Shown here: positions 3,001 to 15,238 of the stretch, piece after piece
Position numbering within the stretch: position 1 is the first letter of the stretch
Layout of the letters: each line of letters begins with the position of its first letter
DNA from: a virus
DNA length: 64,000 nt
Strand: one strand, 5' to 3'
IMG/VR virus record: IMGVR_UViG_3300027499_000006
Location: 10,950 to 74,949 of that record
The notes under the pieces: generated by a model
Databases searched by the model: none
Told to the model about the DNA's origin: nothing
The model's input: only the letters and a program-made list of their open reading frames with translations
Program-made: the position numbers and the translations under genes

Positions 3001-5190
3001 ATTGGCGCGAACACAGGGCAGACTACCACTCCCACTGGTCCGGTCCCCGTATCTAGTGCTAGTAGACCTCGGAATACTGTTGCGGGCTACGAGAACGGCC
3101 CCTATGGACCAGAAGACGGAACTCTAGATGGTATGGATAGAGATGCGTTTGAAGCGCTTTTACGTATGCCCGATGGGGTAGCAAAAACAAAGGCTTTCAA
3201 TAAACTAGTTAAAACAGTCCTTTTCGCTAAAATCTACGGAACTCAGTTTGCACTTGAATTTGTGCCAAGGAGCCAGTGGCGCAATGGCTTGTCTCTAAAC
3301 AGGGGAGAGCTGGGTTGGCAGGCCAATATAGTAGACCCAGCGACTGGGCAGAAAGTTGGTTTTGTACATAGAACATACAGATTTGCAGCTAATCCCATAG
3401 ACCCATCTGGTGACGACGTAATTGATGTCCACCACGACTATGTTTGGTTCACTGATAGTTCTGCTACTGGGACTGGGTTTGCCACTGATTTCTACTACGT
3501 TTCAGACAACTTCTACGAGTCTACTGGCGTGGATATAAACACCATAGGAACTGCCAGAGATGGCTCTTATACTTGGGGACTCGCCAACTTCACTTGGAAT
3601 TCCACAGTCAATATCCACAACATTATGCGTAAGCTCTACGACAAAGCCGATGAATACGAGCCTAGCGACCCAGTCACGGCCACTAAGTTGAGAGACTTGG
3701 CCGTCCGTCTCGGTGCCCCTGCGGGAACTGAGAGCCTCACTGGACCAGCTCGGGGGCGAGCTCTTATCGATGCTCAATACAATCTAGACTTGCGGTACGT
3801 TCAGACTTCCCCCGACTACCCAGACCCCGTCGACATTTCAAGTCTTCTAGACCCCAATGACGCTCAGAAGAGAGCCGAGCACGAGCGGGCGCAGGCGCTA
3901 CTACCAGAGGGCCAGAGAACAAGATATAAAACTCTAGGTAGAGAAATTATGGAGGGGACAGGTTGGTCTGGTATTCGGTACCTTAATCCAGCGCTAGACC
4001 CGAGGCCAGACAATAGGAAAAACAAAAAGTCCGCTCAGCAAATCGCGATAGAAGAGTCTGCTAAGAAGAAAGACGAGGCCGAAAAGACTGTAGCAGTTGA
4101 GAAGCTCAAAAAAGAAACTGAAGATGCTGAAGAGGCTCAAAAGAGCAAGTCTGGTCGGCCTCAAGGGAGGACAATCACCAGTCTTAGCGACGTAACTAAC
4201 GCCGCACCTGGTGACGTCATTAATGTTACTGAACCGGGATATGAGGCAGTATACGTAAGGCAGGAAGATGGCACGTGGGACGCGATTTTCTACGGAAGTG
4301 ATTCTAACCCCTTTAGAAGTGCCTACGACGATGACGATTTAGACATTGTTGACGGGTTCAGTGGTGACATTATGTCAGCACAGATTTTTACTACTCCTGA
4401 AGCGCAAGAGTATTTCTCCCAGTATGCGGCGGGAACTCTAAAAGTAGATAACCCCACAAGGGAGACTGTAGAGAAAGCTCTAAGAGATGGTGACCTTTTC
4501 ACGATGGAAGCCATCTACAGAGGAAATTTAACAAACAACGGTAAGTTTGGAAGAGACAATTTTACTCTTAGAGTAAACTCCTCTCGAATCGAAAGCCAAG
4601 GCACAGACGACGACGTTTACGAGGTCGGAGGGGATATCCTCAATGAGAATGGTCAAAGGATAGGACCTTTTAGGCGAAAAATACGCATGAGGCCTGACGG
4701 TAAACTCGAGATATACCACGGCATACTAAAAATTGAGGATGACAGGTACAAGAGAAGTGGTTTTGGTAAGGACTTTACAAAACAGAGTGAAGCCTTGTAT
4801 AAGCAAATGGGCGTCGATTTAATTAGATTACACTCAGCGTGGGATGGAAGTTACTTCTGGGCTATGCAAGACTACGAGTGGGACTTGGAACATGATAATG
4901 GTAGCAAATACTCTATTTTGAGTGGGGTCCCTGGTGCGCTCCAAGAAGAACTAGACCGTGCAAGAACTAGTGACCCACCGAGACCTAAAGATGTCGCGAA
5001 GCTTGAAGCCTTGATAGATAGGATGGCTGGCTTGGATATCGACGACCCTAACTTCCCTTCTCCCCGAGAAATTGCTATGCTGAAGAGTCAGGACCCATCT
5101 CTCAATGACGACGGAAATGGTGGAGACGGTGCCTGGATGCAAAAAATTCTGAAGAACACTGGGTGGCATGGAAGAAAAGAGCTTAGCTAA
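1..5190 (+). CDS. Giant virion-associated / polyvalent protein (5'-truncated, >1729 aa) with two C-terminal GNAT-like modules
   Basis: Frame is open from base 1 (YETGPVAQQR...) into the ATG at 106, so the gene starts upstream of the window. Duplicated module (HxxxxxxxxxxxxGxGF...DGSYxW...TGWxG) at ~3270-3990 and ~4560-5187. Sits directly before the head protease gene. Confidence 0.7.
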   Translation, partial: YETGPVAQQRALEGFDESKWVQIREQRRERARARRMETQQQNDALKQEDGLLVGEVPKNDNDKPKNQALILSPIGQVVEVTSSNGRKMRFIKIGRDTWKRADKPDDHTRYRSHQIRRDKMEYVKTTESDVPSLDLPPRYYNSFRPVPYSIPRGSSDEELKRLRSMYERQADTTDNSISVQRAEATVKFIDRLSARREGRTATPRQNTTDRANASGSRGRRQNAPLLENNDPESGSTEAHVPTKPTPDENGVTDNPELLADIYDRYTLTTVYLQALTAGRDSTMMTFRTEAEKGVPYTGTQASVPITAIRDALQLQGVDTNRLVENARIIRENRASVRDRNSVTPSDIQEFTDSQKLMENLWGSLRQLEENLRVAYITERVDSPRITSLSQRVEALRARIARLEERGFRLTVPPEATLVEGFSWDDNTEPDIYRPELIMDALKARYPDAKLNDDGELIVGEAEHTVGGNRFRYEAVITRTDDEMFYVYIRETNLSDENPATRSRSFRFDVMRHSARAINNQAAKAREKIFNTASGSNIHSWFNDPRRRREGREPKFDVPDEQGMPHHVRDQVLTREALRKIEEATSEEGITEEMIGVLYNYIRSFGNDTGVMQALYSTFNLDVPTLNRFVDAVNQHIYERDGLNSFSLWESDNGTPLAEGDLVTYTGNERQRGYENLSGKRFIVRIRGLEHRSDGYSYTDYLQVQAVDENNNPLPGTDGNFRWVSSHNLRLDRTSGNTDGSERTGVGAISMPLPVLTTRAGNRYAGQGRLNEVAPYVSEYDRDTLASPTVDIDGIQYPVQASRQSLLGPDLANVIARPRQVQQGDFLMHFDPETGSRRLVEVVNTETLENGNIRLTTVEPVNRTSAKVSQTEFGPDELSLDIYRYDPNFTPDEETLTTAHVGRIADAVRGVNLDELSREARSTIARLLSYDLDSEDLTINEYREALAELLNSRTDEGLIGQVSVADARRALDVAMNRGLPTQDARNNIQAVSNAGTQRGAQIGANTGQTTTPTGPVPVSSASRPRNTVAGYENGPYGPEDGTLDGMDRDAFEALLRMPDGVAKTKAFNKLVKTVLFAKIYGTQFALEFVPRSQWRNGLSLNRGELGWQANIVDPATGQKVGFVHRTYRFAANPIDPSGDDVIDVHHDYVWFTDSSATGTGFATDFYYVSDNFYESTGVDINTIGTARDGSYTWGLANFTWNSTVNIHNIMRKLYDKADEYEPSDPVTATKLRDLAVRLGAPAGTESLTGPARGRALIDAQYNLDLRYVQTSPDYPDPVDISSLLDPNDAQKRAEHERAQALLPEGQRTRYKTLGREIMEGTGWSGIRYLNPALDPRPDNRKNKKSAQQIAIEESAKKKDEAEKTVAVEKLKKETEDAEEAQKSKSGRPQGRTITSLSDVTNAAPGDVINVTEPGYEAVYVRQEDGTWDAIFYGSDSNPFRSAYDDDDLDIVDGFSGDIMSAQIFTTPEAQEYFSQYAAGTLKVDNPTRETVEKALRDGDLFTMEAIYRGNLTNNGKFGRDNFTLRVNSSRIESQGTDDDVYEVGGDILNENGQRIGPFRRKIRMRPDGKLEIYHGILKIEDDRYKRSGFGKDFTKQSEALYKQMGVDLIRLHSAWDGSYFWAMQDYEWDLEHDNGSKYSILSGVPGALQEELDRARTSDPPRPKDVAKLEALIDRMAGLDIDDPNFPSPREIAMLKSQDPSLNDDGNGGDGAWMQKILKNTGWHGRKELS

Positions 5191-6365: not shown

Positions 6366-9300
6366 GTGACAGAATTTATCGGCTCTTCTGGGCCACTAAT
6401 GCTATACACGCAGGGCGCGTGGGGTGTTGTTGTTGACTCAGAAGTTGGTTTGGTTGTTGCCTCTGGCGCTTCTGGCCTTCTCACGACTTCTCGGAGATGG
6501 ACAACCCAAGATGTTAAGCCAACTGGGGAAACTGATGAGATTGCCGAGGCTAGCCTATCTGGGCTTGTTGCCTCTGGTAAAGGCTCGAGTAGTAAGTACA
6601 CTATCCCCAAGTCAGTACAGGCCGAGGCGAAGAAAGCTCTTGAGTGGCGCAAGAAGGAGGGTAGGGGAGGAACCGATGTTGGTCTCAATACTGCTCGGAC
6701 TCTTGCTAAAGGTGGTCAAATTGGAATTGAAAAGATTCGCCACATCGCCAAGTACTTTCCTCGTCACGAGGTAGATAAAAGAGGTCGTGGTTACCGCCCT
6801 GGCGATGATGGGTTCCCTAGTAATGGTCGTATTGCGTGGGCTTTGTGGGGTGGTGACACTGGCTGGCGTTGGGCTAGGACTATCGTCGAACGCGAAGAGA
6901 AGAAGGCTCTAAACGCCTCAGGATACGACCTGAAGAATTTCCCCACCACAGCTGTCGATGCTGATGAATTCACATACGACGACTCTCCAGACTACATGTC
7001 AGAGTTCCTCGCACGGATGCGCCTCGACGGTTCGGGTATGGACCGTCTATACCGAGTTGACTCGGAGAACAACTGTTTTGTGTGGGATGACGGCCAATGG
7101 GACGACCTCGGTATTTCTGGTGGAAACGTCTGGGACTACGACGAAGAACTCGACCAAGGCGTCCAAGATTCCGTAGAAAAGACTCACTTTGTCATTGACC
7201 CAGAGTCCGCAATTATTGTCGCTGCTCGCCTATATGTGAACCCCAGCACTCCCGTTACCGTTGAGGACATCGACGAATACGAAGCCAAGCTAGCCGTCGC
7301 AGCCATCGAGGACGAAGACTGGGACTTCATTGACCGTACTCTACTTTCCGATGGCTCTTTCCAGTCTCAGGAAGAGGAAGACGGAGACTACACCCCCGAA
7401 GAGCGTGCAGAAAATGCTTCCAAGCAAGTTCGTAATAAAGAGGGAAAATTTGCAAAAACGGGTTCTCGGGTTGTGGTGGGTAATGACCCCGCAAGGGGTT
7501 CTGGGGTTATCAAAAGAATTGAACCAGAGACTCAGAGTGTTGTTGTTGAGCTCGATGGTGGTAGAGAGATTACGGTCCCCGCAAAAACAGTGGAAGACGC
7601 CAAAAACTACCCTGCTCAGACACAAGAGGTTGCTCCCGCAGAGAAGAAAACTGTAGACACTTCTGGAATTCTCGGTGAAAGACGTTCCGCAGTAAAGAAG
7701 TCCAAGGCCAAACTATCTAAAGACATCCCTACAATTGAGCCTAAAGAACTCAGAAACATTATCTCCAACTATCCTGCTTGGGTTAAGGAGCAGAGAGATA
7801 ACAAGATTGTAGATGAAAAGAGTCCTGCTACTAGGCCTAGCCCCTATGAGCACCCCCTTCTTCAGAACTGGCTAAGGAAGAGAAGTGGCTCAGATAAATA
7901 TCCAATGAGCTCTTGGTCTAATCCAATTACAGCTGCTGCGGACGAGAAGCTTGTTAGTCCAGACACTAGTGATGTTCAACCTGTTTATATGGCCGTTGTG
8001 GATGCAGACGACCCGAGGGCAGTGTTGGATTTGATTAGTCTTGTACCAGCAAGCACCGTGTCCAATTCTCCGATGGTCTACACCCGTGAGCAGGGTAAGT
8101 GGGTTCGTGACCCTAAAACTCTTACTGACCTCAATTCTCCTACTCCTCCCCCCGTTGTGCCACTTGACTCGGAGGAAACTCTTAATGATGTTCTGAAGCA
8201 GGTTGACTTTGCCCAAGGCGTGACAGCCTCTATCGCACTCACTGTTTTGTATGGAAACGAGCCGATTGTTTCTTCCATCAAGGAAAACATCTCGAAAGCT
8301 CTCCGCAAGTACTGGATTGCTGGTGCTGGGGCCAAGAAGATTCAGTGGGGTGTTGGTGGCGACTGGTACCGATGTGTCCGTCAGCTTGCCCCTTTCATGG
8401 GGGTCAGAGCAAAGAGCTATTGCCAGATGCTCCACAAGACCGCTTTGGGCTACTACACCTCGACACATGCTCGCATGGAGAGGGCCAAGCTTGGGCAATT
8501 CGAGTTGGAAGAAGAAGAGCTTGCCGTTGAATTTACCGAAGTTACTCAATCCGACATGCACACCCCCCTCGAAAAGATTCTTTCTCAGAAGGGGGAGGAC
8601 GAAGACTTTGACATTGATGAGGACATCAAGATTCTTCTGTCCGATGTTGAGGCTTTAGATTACGAGGATTACGCCCTAATCGCAGCTGGGGGTGCTGACC
8701 GCAACCGTGGTGGAGCTGAGAACCTTCGTCGCTACTGGACTATCGGTAAGGGTGGTCTCAAGATTCGTTGGGGTACACCTGGTGACTGGACTCGATGCGC
8801 TCGTCAACTCCGCAAATACATGGGCGCCCGTGCACAGGGCTATTGTGCCCTCCGTCACAAAGAAATGAACGGGTTCTGGCCTGGGGATAAGAAAAACAGG
8901 CGGAAGTTTTCTTTTGATGACACTTATATTCTTAAAGATGAAGAGCAACTAATCTCAGACTCTTTCTTCTCTGCACTATCTGACATGAGTCTCGAAGAGA
9001 TTATTTTGGCTTCTGTTCACCATGAGACTGGAGACTTGGGCTACTCCCCTGAGGGAGAAGAAGAAGTGTTCATTACCGAGGATGGAGAGACATGTCCTCC
9101 ATCTACTCAAGATATTCAACTTAATCTCGCCAATCGACAAAATGCAATTGACAATGTTGGTTACGGCCCACTAAACCCAGCTCAAGCAAATGACGTCTTC
9201 TGGCAAGACAAAGCTGAACGGTGGAACACCACTGTTAGAGAAGCAAAATCAGCACGGTGTGGGAATTGCGTCTTCTTCATTCGTACCCCAGACATGCTCA

Positions 9301-12300
9301 ACTGCATTGAAAAGGGAATCGGTCTTGACCAAGAGGCAGAAGGCTCCGTAGAGGCTGGGGAGCTCGGCTATTGCAACGCTCTTGACTTTAAGTGCGCCTC
9401 TGAGCGAACCTGTAACGCTTGGGCATCTGGTGGCCCAGTTACTGCTGGTGGAGACTACAAAGTTGGAGACGACGTAAACGTTGATGTCGAAGAGTTCTTC
9501 GCAAGGCCGATGTACGAACTCCCTGAGGGACTAAAAGAGTATGTCGAAGAGGTAGAGCAAAGTGACGAGTATGAAATTATGCTTGACGACCTTGTTCCTA
9601 CTCAACGTACCGTAAACATGGCTCGCGTTAAAGACGCTATGGACTCCGACAAGCCAATCCAAGTTTGGGTTAATGAAGACGGTGAGCCTGAAATTGTGAA
9701 TGGCCACCACCGCTCTGTGGCAAAAAGAATGAGTGGCGAAGACACTATTATGGCTAAAGTTTACGACTTTAGGGGGTTTGTTGCTACTGCTGGCTCAAAG
9801 CCTGCTCCCAAGAAAGAGCGAATTAAGGGCTCAAAGCGAAACAAGTCAGGGTCTGGAAAAACTGGTGCTGGAGTAACTTTCACTCAGAAGATTGAAGATG
9901 CTCTGGCAACCAAAGCTACCAAGCACAATGAAACTGCCAAGCAGGGTAGAAAAACCAACATCAGAACTTTGAAGGCTGTCTACCGTAGAGGGGCAGGAGC
10001 ATTTTCAACTTCGCACCGCCCCGACCAGAACCGCAACAGCTGGGCCATGGCTCGAGTAAACGCATTCTTGCACCTACTTAAGACTGGTACCCCCAAGAAC
10101 AGTAAGTACATTACTGACAATGACCTTCTTCCCGCTAGCCACCCAAAATCCACAAAAAGCGCGTCAAGTGCTTTAGTTTCTGCTGGCTATAGCGGTCAGG
10201 ATGGGGCATCCTTCAGTATTCCTCTTGTCATTCCTGAAGAAGTCGAGTCTGGAGATGGCAGAAAGTTTAATAAGGGTGCTATTGAAATAAGGGAGCTTCC
10301 ACTTCCACTCTTGTGGCAGATTGAAACTGGCAATGGCCACGATGGTTCTGTTGTTGTTGGTCGGATTGACCGCATGGAACAAACCGAAGAAGGTATTGGA
10401 AACGCCTACGGTGTCTTTGATTCTGGGGTGTACGGGAGTGAAGCTGAGCGTCTAGTTCGCGAGGGCTTCCTCCGTGGTGTTTCTGCTGATATGGACAAGT
10501 TTGAAGCAACAGAAGAAGTTGTCACTGAAGCAAGTGACGACGATGATAACAAGAAAATCAAAAAAGAAAAAATTATTATTAAGTCGGCTCGTGTAATGGC
10601 CGTTACAATAGTACCTAAGCCCGCTTTTCAAGAGTGCAAAATTTTCCTTGAAGAACCCAAGGACCAACCCCAGGAGGATAACATGATTCCCGACGGAATC
10701 TATATTGAAGACATTGAGCCCGCTGAGGCAGAGGCAGTTGTTGCTTCTGGCCTTATTGCTGGGTCCATCCCCGTTGCACCACCCAAGTCGTGGTTTACTA
10801 ACCCACAGCTTAAGCAACCGACACCCCTTACCGTCACCGACGAGGGCCGTGTCTATGGACACATTGCAGCGTGGGATGTTGACCACATTGGTATGGTTTC
10901 AGGCACTCGCCCCCCACGTAGCCGTAGTAACTATTCCTACTTTCACACAGGGGTCCTCCGCACTGAAGAGGGTGTTGATGTTCCTGTTGGTCAGATTACT
11001 CTTGCTGGTGGACACGCTGACATTCGCGCAAGCGCATCCGAGGCCGTCAAGCACTACGACGACACCGCAAGCGCAGCAATTGATGTTCACGCTGGTGAGG
11101 ACGCTTACGGTATTTGGGTAGCTGGTTCGCTCCGCCCAGGTGTCACCCCCGAGCAGGTTCGTGCCCTCCGCGCATCTGCTCCGTCTGGTGACTGGCGTCC
11201 AATTCGTGGCAACCTCGAGCTTGTTGCAGTGTGTCAGGTTAATGTTCCTGGGTTCCCCATTGCTCGCGCAATGGTTGCCTCTGGACAGGTTACAGCGCTG
11301 ATTGCGGCTGGTGCCTCGGTTCTGGCTAAGATGCGACACAACCCCATGCAGGAGCTCAATGAGCGTCTATCTAAGCTCGAGCAGAAGGAGAAGGCTGGCC
11401 TTATCGCAGCAGCACAGGAAGCTCGCGCTAAGTTCCAAGCTCTTCGCCCATCACAGGAAGAGCCTGTTGTTGCAGATGCCTTCTATCAGGAAGTTCAGCC
11501 AAGTCTTGTCCCGATGCTAGAGAAGACTCTGGCTGATGTCGTATCCTTTACGTTTATCGCTCAGGGGTACCACTGGAACGTCAAGGGCAAGAACTTCCCT
11601 CAGTATCACGAGTTTTTCGGAGAAATTTACGAAGAGGTTCAGGGCTCGATTGACCCCCTCGCTGAGAACATTCTTAAGCTCGGTTACGACGCTCCCATGG
11701 GCATCCTGGCTTACGCCGAGATGAGTGAGCTTTCTGCTTCTGGCACAAAGGACTCTTCCTGTGAAGCAATGGCTTATGACCTGTACTTTGCTAACAACAA
11801 AGTCTTGGACGACTATAAAGAAGCTTTCGCAACAGCAGATTCCATGAACGAACAGGGCGTTGCTGATTTCCTTGCGGGACGCATTGACATGCACCAGAAA
11901 TGGGCGTGGCAGTTGAAGGCTTCTTCAATGCCCGAGAAGATGCGCAAAGAGAGCTACGAGGACGCTCTCGAGCCGATGGACATGATGCGTGAATACGTTG
12001 ATGAGGTCCCCGAGGTTGCCATGATTTCTAGTGGAGCCGAGCACAACTTTGAAGCTTTTAGCGCCCTTACTGAACTGGCTAAGTTCACTAAGGAGGAGCG
12101 CGAAGAGCTTGCCAAAGAGGGCAAGGCTATGCCAGACGGTTCCTACCCCATCAGGAATGAAGAAGACCTGAAGAATGCAGTGTCAACTTATGGACTTGGT
12201 AAGTCTGCAAAGAAGGACATTAAAGCTCACATTATTAAGCGTGCCAAGGAGCTCAACAAAGAAGACCTCATCCCTGAGAATTGGATGGGCAAGAAGGACT

Positions 12301-12359
12301 TCTCCGTTGAGGACATGCGCAACCGTATTGCCGAGCTTAGTGCCAATATGGAGAAGTAG
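6366..12359 (+). CDS. Capsid maturation (prohead) protease polyprotein with multiple accessory domains including ParB-like and Dps
   Basis: Protease-type region (ESGDGRKF...LPLLWQ...HDGSVVVGRID...LRGVSADMD; TVTDEGRVYGHIAAW...SGDWRP...LELVAVCQVNVPGFP) as in actinophage maturation proteases; position upstream of the MCP; 1997 aa. Confidence 0.8.
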   Translation: MTEFIGSSGPLMLYTQGAWGVVVDSEVGLVVASGASGLLTTSRRWTTQDVKPTGETDEIAEASLSGLVASGKGSSSKYTIPKSVQAEAKKALEWRKKEGRGGTDVGLNTARTLAKGGQIGIEKIRHIAKYFPRHEVDKRGRGYRPGDDGFPSNGRIAWALWGGDTGWRWARTIVEREEKKALNASGYDLKNFPTTAVDADEFTYDDSPDYMSEFLARMRLDGSGMDRLYRVDSENNCFVWDDGQWDDLGISGGNVWDYDEELDQGVQDSVEKTHFVIDPESAIIVAARLYVNPSTPVTVEDIDEYEAKLAVAAIEDEDWDFIDRTLLSDGSFQSQEEEDGDYTPEERAENASKQVRNKEGKFAKTGSRVVVGNDPARGSGVIKRIEPETQSVVVELDGGREITVPAKTVEDAKNYPAQTQEVAPAEKKTVDTSGILGERRSAVKKSKAKLSKDIPTIEPKELRNIISNYPAWVKEQRDNKIVDEKSPATRPSPYEHPLLQNWLRKRSGSDKYPMSSWSNPITAAADEKLVSPDTSDVQPVYMAVVDADDPRAVLDLISLVPASTVSNSPMVYTREQGKWVRDPKTLTDLNSPTPPPVVPLDSEETLNDVLKQVDFAQGVTASIALTVLYGNEPIVSSIKENISKALRKYWIAGAGAKKIQWGVGGDWYRCVRQLAPFMGVRAKSYCQMLHKTALGYYTSTHARMERAKLGQFELEEEELAVEFTEVTQSDMHTPLEKILSQKGEDEDFDIDEDIKILLSDVEALDYEDYALIAAGGADRNRGGAENLRRYWTIGKGGLKIRWGTPGDWTRCARQLRKYMGARAQGYCALRHKEMNGFWPGDKKNRRKFSFDDTYILKDEEQLISDSFFSALSDMSLEEIILASVHHETGDLGYSPEGEEEVFITEDGETCPPSTQDIQLNLANRQNAIDNVGYGPLNPAQANDVFWQDKAERWNTTVREAKSARCGNCVFFIRTPDMLNCIEKGIGLDQEAEGSVEAGELGYCNALDFKCASERTCNAWASGGPVTAGGDYKVGDDVNVDVEEFFARPMYELPEGLKEYVEEVEQSDEYEIMLDDLVPTQRTVNMARVKDAMDSDKPIQVWVNEDGEPEIVNGHHRSVAKRMSGEDTIMAKVYDFRGFVATAGSKPAPKKERIKGSKRNKSGSGKTGAGVTFTQKIEDALATKATKHNETAKQGRKTNIRTLKAVYRRGAGAFSTSHRPDQNRNSWAMARVNAFLHLLKTGTPKNSKYITDNDLLPASHPKSTKSASSALVSAGYSGQDGASFSIPLVIPEEVESGDGRKFNKGAIEIRELPLPLLWQIETGNGHDGSVVVGRIDRMEQTEEGIGNAYGVFDSGVYGSEAERLVREGFLRGVSADMDKFEATEEVVTEASDDDDNKKIKKEKIIIKSARVMAVTIVPKPAFQECKIFLEEPKDQPQEDNMIPDGIYIEDIEPAEAEAVVASGLIAGSIPVAPPKSWFTNPQLKQPTPLTVTDEGRVYGHIAAWDVDHIGMVSGTRPPRSRSNYSYFHTGVLRTEEGVDVPVGQITLAGGHADIRASASEAVKHYDDTASAAIDVHAGEDAYGIWVAGSLRPGVTPEQVRALRASAPSGDWRPIRGNLELVAVCQVNVPGFPIARAMVASGQVTALIAAGASVLAKMRHNPMQELNERLSKLEQKEKAGLIAAAQEARAKFQALRPSQEEPVVADAFYQEVQPSLVPMLEKTLADVVSFTFIAQGYHWNVKGKNFPQYHEFFGEIYEEVQGSIDPLAENILKLGYDAPMGILAYAEMSELSASGTKDSSCEAMAYDLYFANNKVLDDYKEAFATADSMNEQGVADFLAGRIDMHQKWAWQLKASSMPEKMRKESYEDALEPMDMMREYVDEVPEVAMISSGAEHNFEAFSALTELAKFTKEEREELAKEGKAMPDGSYPIRNEEDLKNAVSTYGLGKSAKKDIKAHIIKRAKELNKEDLIPENWMGKKDFSVEDMRNRIAELSANMEK
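9580..9775 (+). other. ParB/Sulfiredoxin-like domain within the polyprotein
   Basis: LVPTQ...KPIQV...IVNGHHRSVAKRMSG...: PIxV and (D/N)GHHR motif. Confidence 0.6.
11500..11930 (+). other. dps: Dps/ferritin-like domain within the protease polyprotein
   Basis: QGYHWNVKGKNFPQYHEFFGEIYEEVQGSIDPLAENILKLG: H, H+12, D+27, E+31 spacing matches the Dps ferroxidase centre (H31/H43/D58/E62 in Listeria Dps); C-terminal helix DFLAGRIDMHQKWAWQL. Confidence 0.9.
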
Positions 12360-13063
12360 TGCCTGATAACCTCAAAGAGTTTATTGCTTCTGAAGACCTG
12401 CGCAAGCTGGTCGAAAAAGTCGACCCATCCATCAAAGATGAGGCTGAAAAAGAGGCAGATAAGCTTGAGAAAGAGGCAGAAGAGCTAGAGAAGATTGATG
12501 GTCAAGCTCCCTCAGTTGACACTAAAGAACAAGAATACGACAAAGAAGGTCGTAGGCGCTACACCGCCAAAACTCAGCCACGTGACGCACAAGGCAAATT
12601 TAGATTAGTTCTTGCAAGAATTAAACAGAATCTTGGGACATCTGGAAACCAAGGTGTTCTAGAAAAAATTGAACAGGCTGAAAATCTTGACAATGCTGGT
12701 GACTACGCTGGCGCTGTGGAGGCGTCTTCTGACCTCATTAGCACAGTGGACCGCCTCGACTCTGGGGCTCTTAATGCAAAGTCTGTGGAAAATGTTCGAC
12801 TCGCCACATCAGATTTGGGCAAGGTAATTTCTAACTTACCTCTTCCTTTTGATAATCAAGCTCAAAAGGTTCGGTATAGCGATTTACCCGCTGCTCTAAA
12901 GACTCTCACCAAGAAATTAATTTCTCGTGTTGAGGAAAAAATCGGAGCGGAAGACGCCGAGATTGCAACAAAAGAACTACGCGACTTTATGTCAGGAGCT
13001 GACTTCTATAGTCAAGCAGAGGTTTCTGCACAATTAAATAGAATGCTCAGATTACTAACTTAA
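12359..13063 (+). CDS. Hypothetical head-region protein
   Basis: 234-aa helical ORF overlapping the previous stop; contains QPRDAQGKF motif. Confidence 0.65.
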   Translation: MPDNLKEFIASEDLRKLVEKVDPSIKDEAEKEADKLEKEAEELEKIDGQAPSVDTKEQEYDKEGRRRYTAKTQPRDAQGKFRLVLARIKQNLGTSGNQGVLEKIEQAENLDNAGDYAGAVEASSDLISTVDRLDSGALNAKSVENVRLATSDLGKVISNLPLPFDNQAQKVRYSDLPAALKTLTKKLISRVEEKIGAEDAEIATKELRDFMSGADFYSQAEVSAQLNRMLRLLT

Positions 13064-13201: not shown

Positions 13202-15238
13202 GTGGACCAAATCAAATCGCAGCTAGACAGGCTTGCAGACCTCGATGACGAACTAGTCACCGAGCTCGAGTCAAGTATCGTCACTGAGTTTGAATCGGTC
13301 GAAGCAGGTGAAACTACTCCCGAGTCAGTTGATGCCATGACAGCTCTCGCTGAAATGCTCGAAACCGTTCGTGCGGAAACTCAACGCCGTGTTGCACAAG
13401 CTGAAGAGCTTACTGCCCGCGCTGCTGAGGCCGCTGCCCGAGTTAAGGGTGACGGAATCGAAGAAGCAGAAGTTGCTCCCATGGAAGAAGAGGAACCTGT
13501 CTCTACCGAAGAGGACGAGATGCCAGCTGAGGAGACTCCAGAAGAAATGATGGAAGACCCTGAGATGGAAGAGGAAACTCCTACCATGGAGGAAGAAGAG
13601 GACGAGGATAAGGATAAGACTATGTCCAAAGCATCAACAGAGTCGGGTAAAGCTGCAGAATTCACCGCAGAAGCCGATGAGAACGTTGTCGAAGAGGCTG
13701 TAGTAGAGGTCGCTGAAACAGAGTCTGAAGCAGGGGTGGCCGAAGAAGCCACTTCCGTTGAAGAGTCTGCCGAGGTCTTTGCAACAGAAGAGACAGAACC
13801 TGTTACCGAAGTAGAGGAAATCTCCGCTGAGGAAGCAGTAGAAGCACCCGAGGAAGCAACTGGTGAAGAAGTGTTCTCCACCGAAGAAGTTGTTGCTGAG
13901 GAATCCGAAACAGAAACTAGTGAGCCTGAGGCTCAGGAAGAGGCACCCGTGACCGCCGCAGTTGATGGAACTATTGATGTTCCTGCTGACCGCCGCCCAG
14001 TTGTATCCGTGGCGTCCGCTCCAGTAGCAATTACTGCTGGCGCTGACATCCCTGGACACTCGGCTGGTAGCACCCTTGCAGATATGCGCGAAGTTGCGGA
14101 GGCAATGGAGAAGCGTCTCCACAGCCTTCGTCGCGTAAATGGTGGAGATGGAGAGCAGCACATTGTTGCATCTATCACCACTGAGTACCCCGAGGAACGT
14201 ACTCTCGGTACTGACCCCGAAGAGAACCGCGCCAAGATTGAAAGATTAGTAGGAGCTGAGGCACTTGTTGCTTCGGGTGGTTTCGCCACCCCGCTTGAGG
14301 TCCGCTATGACGTTTTCGGTCTCGGTACAGCAGTCCGCCCCGTGCGTGACTCTCTTCCCCGTTTCCAGGCAGACCGTGGTGGCGTTCGCTACGTGACTCC
14401 GCCTGTATTGTCCAGCTATGCAGACGCCGTTGGTGTTTGGACAGCTTCTAACGATGCAGCAGAGACACCCGACCCCGCAACCAAGACCAGCCTGACCGTC
14501 ACAGCTGCTGCTGAGCTGACAGCCGTCACTGACGCTGTTACTCTGCAGATGCAGTTTGGTAACCTGTTTACTCGCGCATACCCTGAACTGCTTGCTCGCC
14601 ACAACGAGCTTGGTCTGATTCAGCACGCACGTGAGGCAGAGCAGAACATCCTATCTCGCATCGGAACTGGTTCAACAGCTGTCACAACCACAAGCCTCAT
14701 TGGTGTCGGTCGTGACTTCTTGGTCCAGATTAAGCGTGCTGCAGCGGCCTACCGTTCGCGTCACCGCATTGACCCTAGCACCCAGCTTCGCGCCATCATC
14801 CCTTCGTGGGTGTACGACGCAATGGCTGCGGACCTCGCTCTGGCAATGCCTGGAGATGGCACCATCTCGGTGAGCAACTCCGAAATCAACGGATACCTAG
14901 CGAACTCCAACGTTGCCCTCGTGGCTTCTTTGGACGCAAATGTGTTCGGTTCTCAGGGTACAGCTGCACTCCTTGAGTTCCCCGACTCATTCACTTGGTA
15001 CCTGTTCGCTGAGGGAACATTCTTGTTCCTCGACGGTGGAACACTCGACCTCGGAATTATCCGTGACTCGGGTCTCGTTGGAACCAACGACTACAAGATG
15101 TTCGTTGAGACCTTCGAGGGTGTTGCCAAGGTTGGCGTTGAATCGCTTGCCATCACCTCGACCATCTCGGTCAACGGTGCAGCAGCTGCCCTCCGCGACA
15201 CCACTGGTGGCGCAACCGCAGCGGCTATCGAGTACTAA
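13202..15238 (+). CDS. Major capsid protein (HK97 fold) with N-terminal acidic scaffolding region; probable hexamer protein
   Basis: About 250 aa of Glu-rich scaffold, then ALVASGGFATPLEVRYD...RDSLPRFQADRGG; strong SD; followed by a UUCG hairpin; synteny like cluster B mycobacteriophages. Confidence 0.85.
   Translation: MDQIKSQLDRLADLDDELVTELESSIVTEFESVEAGETTPESVDAMTALAEMLETVRAETQRRVAQAEELTARAAEAAARVKGDGIEEAEVAPMEEEEPVSTEEDEMPAEETPEEMMEDPEMEEETPTMEEEEDEDKDKTMSKASTESGKAAEFTAEADENVVEEAVVEVAETESEAGVAEEATSVEESAEVFATEETEPVTEVEEISAEEAVEAPEEATGEEVFSTEEVVAEESETETSEPEAQEEAPVTAAVDGTIDVPADRRPVVSVASAPVAITAGADIPGHSAGSTLADMREVAEAMEKRLHSLRRVNGGDGEQHIVASITTEYPEERTLGTDPEENRAKIERLVGAEALVASGGFATPLEVRYDVFGLGTAVRPVRDSLPRFQADRGGVRYVTPPVLSSYADAVGVWTASNDAAETPDPATKTSLTVTAAAELTAVTDAVTLQMQFGNLFTRAYPELLARHNELGLIQHAREAEQNILSRIGTGSTAVTTTSLIGVGRDFLVQIKRAAAAYRSRHRIDPSTQLRAIIPSWVYDAMAADLALAMPGDGTISVSNSEINGYLANSNVALVASLDANVFGSQGTAALLEFPDSFTWYLFAEGTFLFLDGGTLDLGIIRDSGLVGTNDYKMFVETFEGVAKVGVESLAITSTISVNGAAAALRDTTGGATAAAIEY

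Follow-up and report, generated by a model that had tools for sequence, protein, structure and literature searches.

A Dps-type mini-ferritin domain within the prohead protease polyprotein of an uncultured tailed phage, a candidate capsid-loaded cargo

A head protein of 1997 residues (P0001), encoded by an uncultured tailed phage, carries an intact mini-ferritin domain of the Dps family in frame with, and C-terminal to, a domain that has the fold of a prohead (capsid-maturation) serine protease. Its gene lies in a stretch of 64,000 nucleotides, here called the window, which comprises positions 10,950 to 74,949 of the 82.6-kb IMG/VR virus record IMGVR_UViG_3300027499_000006; the coordinates of its features are collected in Table 1. 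Dps domains of the same subtype are joined to prohead proteases of several other kinds in unrelated phages, and the reading that we favor, at a probability of roughly 0.72, is that Dps is a cargo with ferroxidase function that is loaded into the procapsid by being built into a protease-bearing head polyprotein. An initial annotation, made from the letters of the window and their open reading frames (ORFs), had placed an intact Dps domain with exact ferroxidase spacing at 11500–11930, in frame and C-terminal to the protease region, and had named a Pfam search, structure prediction and a survey of homologous proteases as ways of checking it. All three checks, together with independently assembled contigs, bear out the domain, its spacing and the fusion, as set out below.

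The Pfam Ferritin model (PF00210) matches residues 1718–1852 of P0001 (nucleotides 11517–11921) with 58.4 bits against a cut-off of 24.5 (expect value (E) 9.8e-16), and residues 1713–1853 are matched by PHROG 3636, a phage Dps-like family. Among the sequences of the Protein Data Bank (PDB), phmmer retrieved 58 Dps-family entries, a few of which are engineered Dps chimeras; the best is Pseudomonas Dps (8ff9, E 1.9e-16). In these alignments, the HW...H...D...E pattern of the query falls on the ferroxidase residues of the solved proteins, with H1748, D1763 and E1767 lying 12, 27 and 31 residues after H1736 and W1737 directly adjoining the latter. An AlphaFold2 model of residues 1700–1870, built on 51 homologous domains (predicted local distance difference test (pLDDT) 87.5), consists of a four-helix bundle (long helices at model residues 15–39, 45–72, which is kinked, 100–127 and 131–154) with the short BC helix characteristic of the Dps fold in the crossover loop (residues 81–87); the E helix of ferritins is absent. 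The top 50 PDB matches of this model in Foldseek all belong to the Dps family, with target-normalized template modeling (TM) scores of 0.78–0.92, mostly 0.83–0.92, and root mean squared deviations (r.m.s.d.) mostly of 1.3–1.7 Å. Prediction of the domain as a paired copy (homodimer) gave a score of 0.41, against a mark of 0.42. Because the NCBIfam equivalog models for Dps match below their cut-offs (for example, 40.6 versus 114 bits), the domain is a divergent member of the family and no orthologue of a named cellular Dps.

The putative active site is strongly conserved. Across 79 fused Dps domains, whose identity falls to about 40%, both histidines, the aspartate and the glutamate are invariant and the tryptophan is retained in 97%; in an alignment of 86 architecturally different proteins, all five residues are invariant. 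The domain is also acidic throughout this set: the core in P0001 has an isoelectric point (pI) of 4.48, with 10 Lys and Arg versus 21 Asp and Glu residues, the pI ranges from 4.05 to 4.96 across the 79 domains, and the flanking linkers are acidic as well. Neither the Lys-rich tail nor the basic surface of E. coli-type DNA-binding Dps was found in any of the 79, which makes DNA binding or condensation in the manner of E. coli Dps unlikely. In these respects the sequence resembles Dps proteins that do not bind DNA, where the role is Fe(II) detoxification.

Independent data speak to the reality of the fusion. Logan contigs from public lake and lagoon runs of different studies cover positions 10500–12274, 10668–11673 and 11644–12700 and, over the region compared (10500–12700, spanning both Dps junctions), depart from the window only through substitutions, none of them showing an insertion or a deletion. 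Public runs containing this DNA are chiefly metagenomes of lake water from many studies, joined by a lagoon and a subsurface study that is possibly the source; no RNA run is listed among them. More than 1,200 proteins are related to residues 1290–1997 of P0001, and the Dps cassette occupies the same place in 78 of the best 120 of them (lengths 1338–2361 residues); these 78 are 52–98% identical to the query over the searched part and keep the reading frame through the cassette. Two circumstances might suggest that an assembly error or a frameshift had joined a separate Dps gene to the protease gene, namely, that the metagenomic record has an estimated completeness of only about 48%, and that the homologous region of a cultured relative, Actinomycetia phage DSL-LC01, is annotated as three coding sequences (CDSs). 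However, since contigs from independent studies bridge the junctions without insertions or deletions and 78 divergent homologues maintain a single frame, such an artifact is excluded for the Dps fusion, its residual probability being negligible. The layout in DSL-LC01 (OQ999401.1, L002:6578-11497), with three consecutive CDSs annotated as ‘capsid maturation protease’ versus the ORFs of 1997 and 234 residues here, reflects either a true gene split or sequencing frameshifts.

Cultured phages have thus far yielded relatives of the carrier and none of the fusion. A megablast search of the polyprotein gene against 50,697 phage records gave no match, and tblastn with residues 1700–1997 found no fused Dps in cultured phages, its matches being to the C-terminal module only, plus one free-standing cyanophage Dps. 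The latter, from Synechococcus phage S-SRM01 (28.5% identity), is the only match to the P0001 Dps in the phage collection searched. Judged by the protease region, the closest cultured relative is the Dishui Lake phage DSL-LC01, at 69.5% identity, and large Microbacterium and Arthrobacter phages come next; all of these are without Dps.

Comparison of relatives with and without Dps delimits the cassette. With the invariant VNVPGFP at the end of the second conserved domain as an anchor, the first ‘DGSYPI’ module follows after ~117 residues in relatives that lack Dps, which usually have two such modules, and 265–330 residues past the anchor in relatives that bear Dps, which usually have one. In P0054 and P0060, Dps is placed after the first DGSYPI module. 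Pfam searches of the inserts and tails of Dps-lacking relatives returned nothing informative; a second DGSYPI module stands there in place of Dps. Dps thus forms a discrete cassette of about 170–190 residues with a conserved frame. On a tree of the protease region, the presence of Dps requires 6 changes (at least 2 of them forced by well-supported branches) versus ~35 for shuffled labels, and the protease clades reappear in the tree of the Dps domains at the minimum possible number of changes. Because of this congruence and the small number of changes, the cassette is judged to be old and mostly inherited vertically with its carrier, with a few gains or losses. One apparent loss, in P0107, may instead be a truncated protein, as its sequence ends shortly past the anchor.

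Residues 1290–1693, upstream of Dps, are labeled by PHROGs as protease or portal families; the head maturation protease families match strongly and cover mainly residues 1470–1651. The region is made up of two domains, of which only the first (residues 1290–1432) has a protease fold. Within it, Peptidase_S78 (PF04586) scores 20.0 bits on residues 1324–1427 (E 8e-4), just below its cut-off of 21. When re-aligned with VIA-align, the model of the first domain matches T4 gp21 (5jbl) with Z 8.8 and an r.m.s.d. of 2.3 Å over 107 aligned residues, followed by at least ten herpesvirus assemblins or proteases at Z 5–7, all on model residues 1–143. Usable Z scores came only from this re-alignment and only for the first domain: Foldseek gave no significant PDB match for the 411-residue model of the whole protease region, and phmmer with residues 1290–1700 gave no match among PDB sequences. 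His1325 and Ser1373 (H36 and S84 in the alignment) are 48 residues apart and invariant in 40 homologues, and their motif resemblance makes them a candidate catalytic pair. The alignment of residues 1290–1700 has a mean column identity of 74%; the second domain is modeled with low pLDDT.

Table 1. Features of the polyprotein gene and its downstream neighbors (window coordinates; aa, amino acids of P0001 unless stated otherwise)
Feature	Position	Strand	Basis or remark
Head polyprotein ORF P0001, 1997 aa	6366–12359	+	GTG start, TAG stop; open for 1997 codons; more than 120 clusters of homologues, 1400–2360 aa long
Prohead (capsid-maturation) serine protease domain, aa 1290–1432	10233–10661	+	Fold match; candidate His1325 (10338–10340) and Ser1373 (10482–10484)
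Second very conserved domain, aa 1470–1650	10773–11315	+	PHROG 18402 and 29860; travels with the protease domain
VVADA motif, aa 1701–1705, candidate cut site	11466–11480	+	Shortly before Dps helix A; aligns across linkers that otherwise vary
Dps (mini-ferritin) domain, aa 1714–1855	11505–11930	+	Pfam, PHROG, phmmer, AlphaFold2, Foldseek
Ferroxidase-center residues H1736 (11571–11573), W1737 (11574–11576), H1748 (11607–11609), D1763 (11652–11654), E1767 (11664–11666)	11571–11666	+	
MISSG variant, aa 1886–1890, candidate C-terminal cut site	12021–12035	+	Aligns with GL[IV]A[SA][AG] in homologues
C-terminal ‘DGSYPI’ module, aa 1905–1997	12078–12356	+	tblastn to Microbacterium, Gordonia and Arthrobacter phage proteins
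ORF P0128, 234 aa, ending LLRLLT	12359–13063	+	GTG overlaps polyprotein TAG (TAGTG, 12357–12361)
Major capsid protein	13202–15238	+	PHROG 777, E 2.5e-78

A short motif, [LIVM][TIVLS]A[ASDG][GA], occurs 11 times in P0001 versus 0.7 ± 0.8 times (maximum 4) in 500 shuffled versions, a 16-fold enrichment. In a slightly relaxed form it lies within 35 residues upstream of Dps in 58 of 76 homologues (3% by chance) and within 60 residues downstream in 51 of the 76 (6% by chance), the downstream variant being conserved about 30 residues past the domain. It recurs in the major capsid protein, in which, in an alignment with two homologues, a variable, acidic N-terminal part of ~280 residues ends at an invariant PVAITAG-ADIPG (ITAGA, 14030–14044) and is followed by highly conserved sequence; this junction is the position at which capsid maturation cleavage would be expected. 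The capsid protein extension (window positions 13202–14030) is extremely acidic, Glu-rich, poorly conserved and unusually long, and ends at an invariant PADRRP...PVAITAGADIPG. The flanking motif is thus a likely cut site of the prohead protease, and a large family of actinophage-like head proteases thereby gains a cleavage code that can be put to the test. Separate production of Dps from a nested internal start finds no counterpart in the sequence, as no Shine–Dalgarno-like sequence precedes the only nearby ATG (nucleotide 11514), whose methionine is not conserved.

To see how widely this Dps subtype is distributed, a profile of the fused domains was searched against 1.84 billion representative proteins, of which 319 clusters match at E ≤ 1e-30. 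The best 150 matches comprise 4 polyprotein homologues found earlier and 146 newly listed representatives; 103 of the 146 exceed 250 residues, with Dps at many different positions, and the remaining 43 have 250 residues or fewer. A Pfam tally of 86 mid-length proteins from this search recorded Peptidase_S78 in 23 (best E 9e-49), the XkdF-type Peptidase_S78_2 in 2 and Mu-like_Pro in 1, together with Phage_Mu_F (2), HAD acid phosphatase (6), Zeta toxin (2) and DUF5824 (5). The order of modules varies, S78 preceding Dps in P0164, P0185, P0195 and P0228, and Dps and/or HAD preceding S78 in P0187 and P0239. The surroundings of these genes are head modules: the P0185 gene directly precedes an SU10-type capsid gene, that of P0144 lies after Portal_Mu and MuF genes, and in P0177 Dps is found within a Mu-like protease gene. 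That one enzyme was independently joined to prohead proteases of four kinds argues most strongly for delivery into the prohead as its purpose, and with at least four protease lineages and 319 clusters involved, the arrangement is a widespread strategy and no curiosity. P0130 carries a tandem double Dps, and P0149, P0187 and P0239 are among the fusions of the same Dps subtype to a Zeta-toxin kinase domain or a HAD-type acid phosphatase plus a canonical S78; together they make up an entire repertoire of head polyproteins that contain Dps.

Under the cargo reading, the polyprotein would be co-assembled into the prohead, as prohead proteases and protease–scaffold fusions are. The activated protease would then cut at the [LIVM]-[TIVLS]-A-[ASDG]-[GA] motifs on either side of Dps and free a domain of ~185 residues inside the head, where folded Dps, and more so a 12-mer, would be too big to leave through the capsid pores and would stay with the DNA. 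With H2O2 or O2 as oxidant, its conserved di-iron site would convert Fe(II) and sequester the resulting iron, which would take away Fenton reactants beside the packed genome; as the domain is acidic and lacks a basic tail, protection would come from this chemistry and not from coating of the DNA. We infer these steps, namely, that Dps is packaged, is cut out at the motifs beside it, forms a 12-mer, works as a ferroxidase in the head and is either retained or ejected. Several of them were already part of the initial annotation, whose proposals fare unequally: co-assembly into the prohead gains from the conserved fusion and from its recurrence with other prohead protease families, as capsid loading predicts, and release by the protease gains from an enriched, conserved motif that flanks Dps and recurs at the capsid maturation junction, packaging and excision themselves remaining conditional, whereas protection of DNA, if it was to work by DNA binding, is unlikely.

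There is precedent for phage Dps in virions: mass spectrometry of purified virions of Proteus phage Privateer detected its Dps (PMC7881722), and the particle proteome of phage G includes a ferritin-like protein (PMC12484599). Where the enzyme would act is less clear-cut. The version that we prefer, at somewhat under even odds, has Dps act only inside the virion as a scavenger of Fenton reactants, and it fits the lake habitat. Photochemical H2O2 and Fe(II) occur in lake waters. In the other version, which is possible and distinctly less probable, Dps would be ejected with the DNA and act at an early stage in the cell, which also agrees with the concept of polyvalent proteins (PMC5512222).

Some observations weigh against the proposed cargo role or against parts of it. 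Zeta-toxin and HAD-phosphatase modules are among the fusion partners of this Dps subtype, and P0001 itself has a faint ParB-like match; such modules look like intracellular effectors and favor ejection over a virion-resident role. Because the closest cultured relatives do without it, Dps is dispensable for assembly. A copy of the candidate cleavage motif (LSASG, residue 1789) is found within the Dps fold, where it is not conserved, so that presence of the motif alone does not define a cut. Finally, many relatives carry the LLRLLT domain fused to the end of the polyprotein, and this phage encodes it in a gene of its own.

Two other explanations of the fusion have to be considered. Dps could be a late auxiliary enzyme of the infected cell that is not packaged, the fusion providing strong late co-expression and cytoplasmic processing, and the enzyme lowering oxidative stress or managing iron during the production of progeny. 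Free-standing phage Dps genes, including those of Gratiaviridae, Lactobacillus phages and others, are usually interpreted as auxiliary oxidative-stress genes of this type (PMC8008677). The 43 short representatives from the profile search may likewise be free-standing. Yet co-expression hardly explains why Dps was repeatedly and independently joined to at least four types of prohead protease, always in the head module, and purified virions of some phages do contain Dps; moreover, activation of prohead proteases is normally confined to the assembled shell, which speaks against processing in the cytoplasm. We therefore regard an unpackaged auxiliary enzyme as improbable.

Nor do we give much credence to the Dps fold being mainly an assembly device, that is, a self-associating hub (dimer to 12-mer) that clusters the polyprotein into the prohead core or inner body, with the metal only stabilizing the oligomer. 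Dps proteins do form highly stable 12-mers by themselves, oligomerizing modules are required in phage scaffolds and inner bodies, and Dps lies between the protease and the C-terminal modules, where protease–scaffold fusions carry their scaffold part. However, close relatives and all cultured relatives assemble without it, its position is variable (on either side of the protease, and also in tandem), and the invariance of the four ferroxidase ligands and the adjacent tryptophan in the 86 aligned representatives points to selection on catalysis rather than on a packing surface.

The arrangement can be compared with several known systems. In T4, the internal proteins and Alt enter the prohead core, gp21 trims their capsid-targeting sequence at a short consensus site, and they are kept in the head with the DNA. 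These cargoes are separate genes with a leader of ~10 residues and are ejected against host defenses, whereas the putative cargo here is an iron enzyme, built covalently into the protease polyprotein. The nested protease–scaffold genes lambda C/Nu3, Mu I/Z and P2 gpO likewise encode a protease followed by in-frame domains of the prohead interior; there, only scaffold lies past the protease, and every product is broken down and lost from the head, whereas here Dps follows. Free-standing phage Dps proteins, as in Kuravirus-type podophages (for example, Proteus phage Privateer, QIN94861), Gratiaviridae, Lactobacillus phages and phage G, are likewise phage-encoded mini-ferritins of the Dps family. 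They are separate small genes with no known loading route, in contrast to a domain that sits within a protease polyprotein between candidate cut sites.

Polyvalent proteins and MuF–toxin fusions are also very large, multidomain, head-associated proteins in which peptidases are mixed with shuffled enzymatic modules (Iyer et al. 2017, PMC5512222), and the modules are proposed to be delivered with the DNA (PMC5512222). P0001 matches this description in having at least eight recognizable modules that are present, absent or reordered among homologues; its anchor is an S78/assemblin-fold maturation protease, whereas that of polyvalent proteins is typically MuF or a zincin-like peptidase. Dps, ferritin and iron are not mentioned in the polyvalent-protein paper (PMC5512222). 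Encapsulins with EncFtn or Flp cargo (PMC5012862, PMC11202242) share with the proposed arrangement an HK97-fold shell around an iron-oxidizing protein of the ferritin superfamily and a built-in address. They have no DNA, portal or tail, and their cargo, EncFtn or Flp instead of Dps, is loaded by means of a short C-terminal peptide, whereas the present record is that of a true tailed phage, encoding TerL, portal, head–tail adaptor, major tail protein and tail completion protein, in which the cargo would be a canonical Dps and the address its fusion to the maturation protease. The encapsulin-like strategy suggested at the outset therefore stands as a functional resemblance; it is an analogy, not membership.

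No description of Dps or ferritin joined to a prohead protease was found in the literature searched, most subscription journals being outside its coverage. The carrier principle is known already, from the trimming of T4 cargo, polyvalent proteins and the ferritin-like cargo of encapsulins, as is free-standing Dps in virions; what is new is a Dps cargo joined to the prohead protease, the breadth of this association and the idea of an iron and peroxide chemistry that belongs to the virions themselves. Should the domain be packaged, this would be the first defined route by which an antioxidant, iron-sequestering enzyme is placed beside a packed phage genome, and it would explain the so-far unexplained Dps in the virion proteomes of Privateer and phage G. 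A bolder generalization, which we consider doubtful, is that many uncultured tailed phages, especially in lakes, use their capsids in an encapsulin-like manner, the protease carrying and releasing Dps and its 12-mers mineralizing iron in the virion. If this were true, virions would protect themselves against Fenton damage and be carriers of particulate iron, which would provide a molecular basis for iron in viral particles. The subject brings together three fields that are mostly kept apart, namely, capsid cargo loading, encapsulin and ferritin biology, and virus decay and iron cycling in sunlit waters, and the fusion arrangement offers a natural model for bringing foreign proteins into phage heads.

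The gene order around the polyprotein is terminase, portal, giant minor head protein, polyprotein and capsid protein, which places the polyprotein gene between those of the portal (L003:5063-6661; PHROG 776, E 8.5e-103) and the major capsid protein; the large terminase also lies upstream in the record. Downstream follow the 234-residue ORF P0128, the major capsid protein, the major tail protein, the head–tail adaptor and the tail-completion protein. P0128 is homologous to a domain of ~200 residues, ending in LLRLLT, with which the polyprotein terminates in many relatives; it sits where a scaffold gene would, immediately ahead of the capsid gene, and matches no family. The giant minor head protein is an ORF of ~2899 residues (L003:7440 to window position 5190) with PHROG 16619, a minor head protein family, in its N-terminal third. 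Its homologues reach 4119 residues and carry an RNase_T domain (L005), and it is a second giant head-associated polyprotein.

Several actinophage proteins with C-terminal parts of the DGSYPI type are annotated as capsid maturation proteases. Some further modules of P0001 and its homologues are rich in cysteine. Residues 965–1029 (window positions 9258–9452) contain a CxxC...C...C...C...CxAW pattern that ends at VTAGG and, by eye, resembles a high-potential iron–sulfur protein (HiPIP); the pattern occurs in 12 of 121 homologues, and the annotators of DSL-LC01 gave a neighboring gene the name high-potential iron–sulfur protein. A HiPIP identity found no Pfam match and no meaningful PDB sequence match, and the protein-atlas lead is weak (0.75, in a cluster with 11% HIPIP); the segment is another optional module and possibly a second metal-binding cargo. 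In the homologue P0076, from another metagenome, a metallothionein-like Cys-rich insert (GCGCCS...SCC.NC) occurs twice at residues ~1700–1780, directly before Dps, which hints at metal handling around the cassette. Two copies of a module of ~65 residues are found further upstream in P0001, at window positions 8304–8330 (residue 647; RKYWIAGAGAKKIQWG...) and 8727–8753 (residue 788; RRYWTIGKGGLKIRWG...), and match PHROG 6439, a family of unknown function. The same module stands at the C-terminal end of some relatives and is thus another of the shuffled modules.

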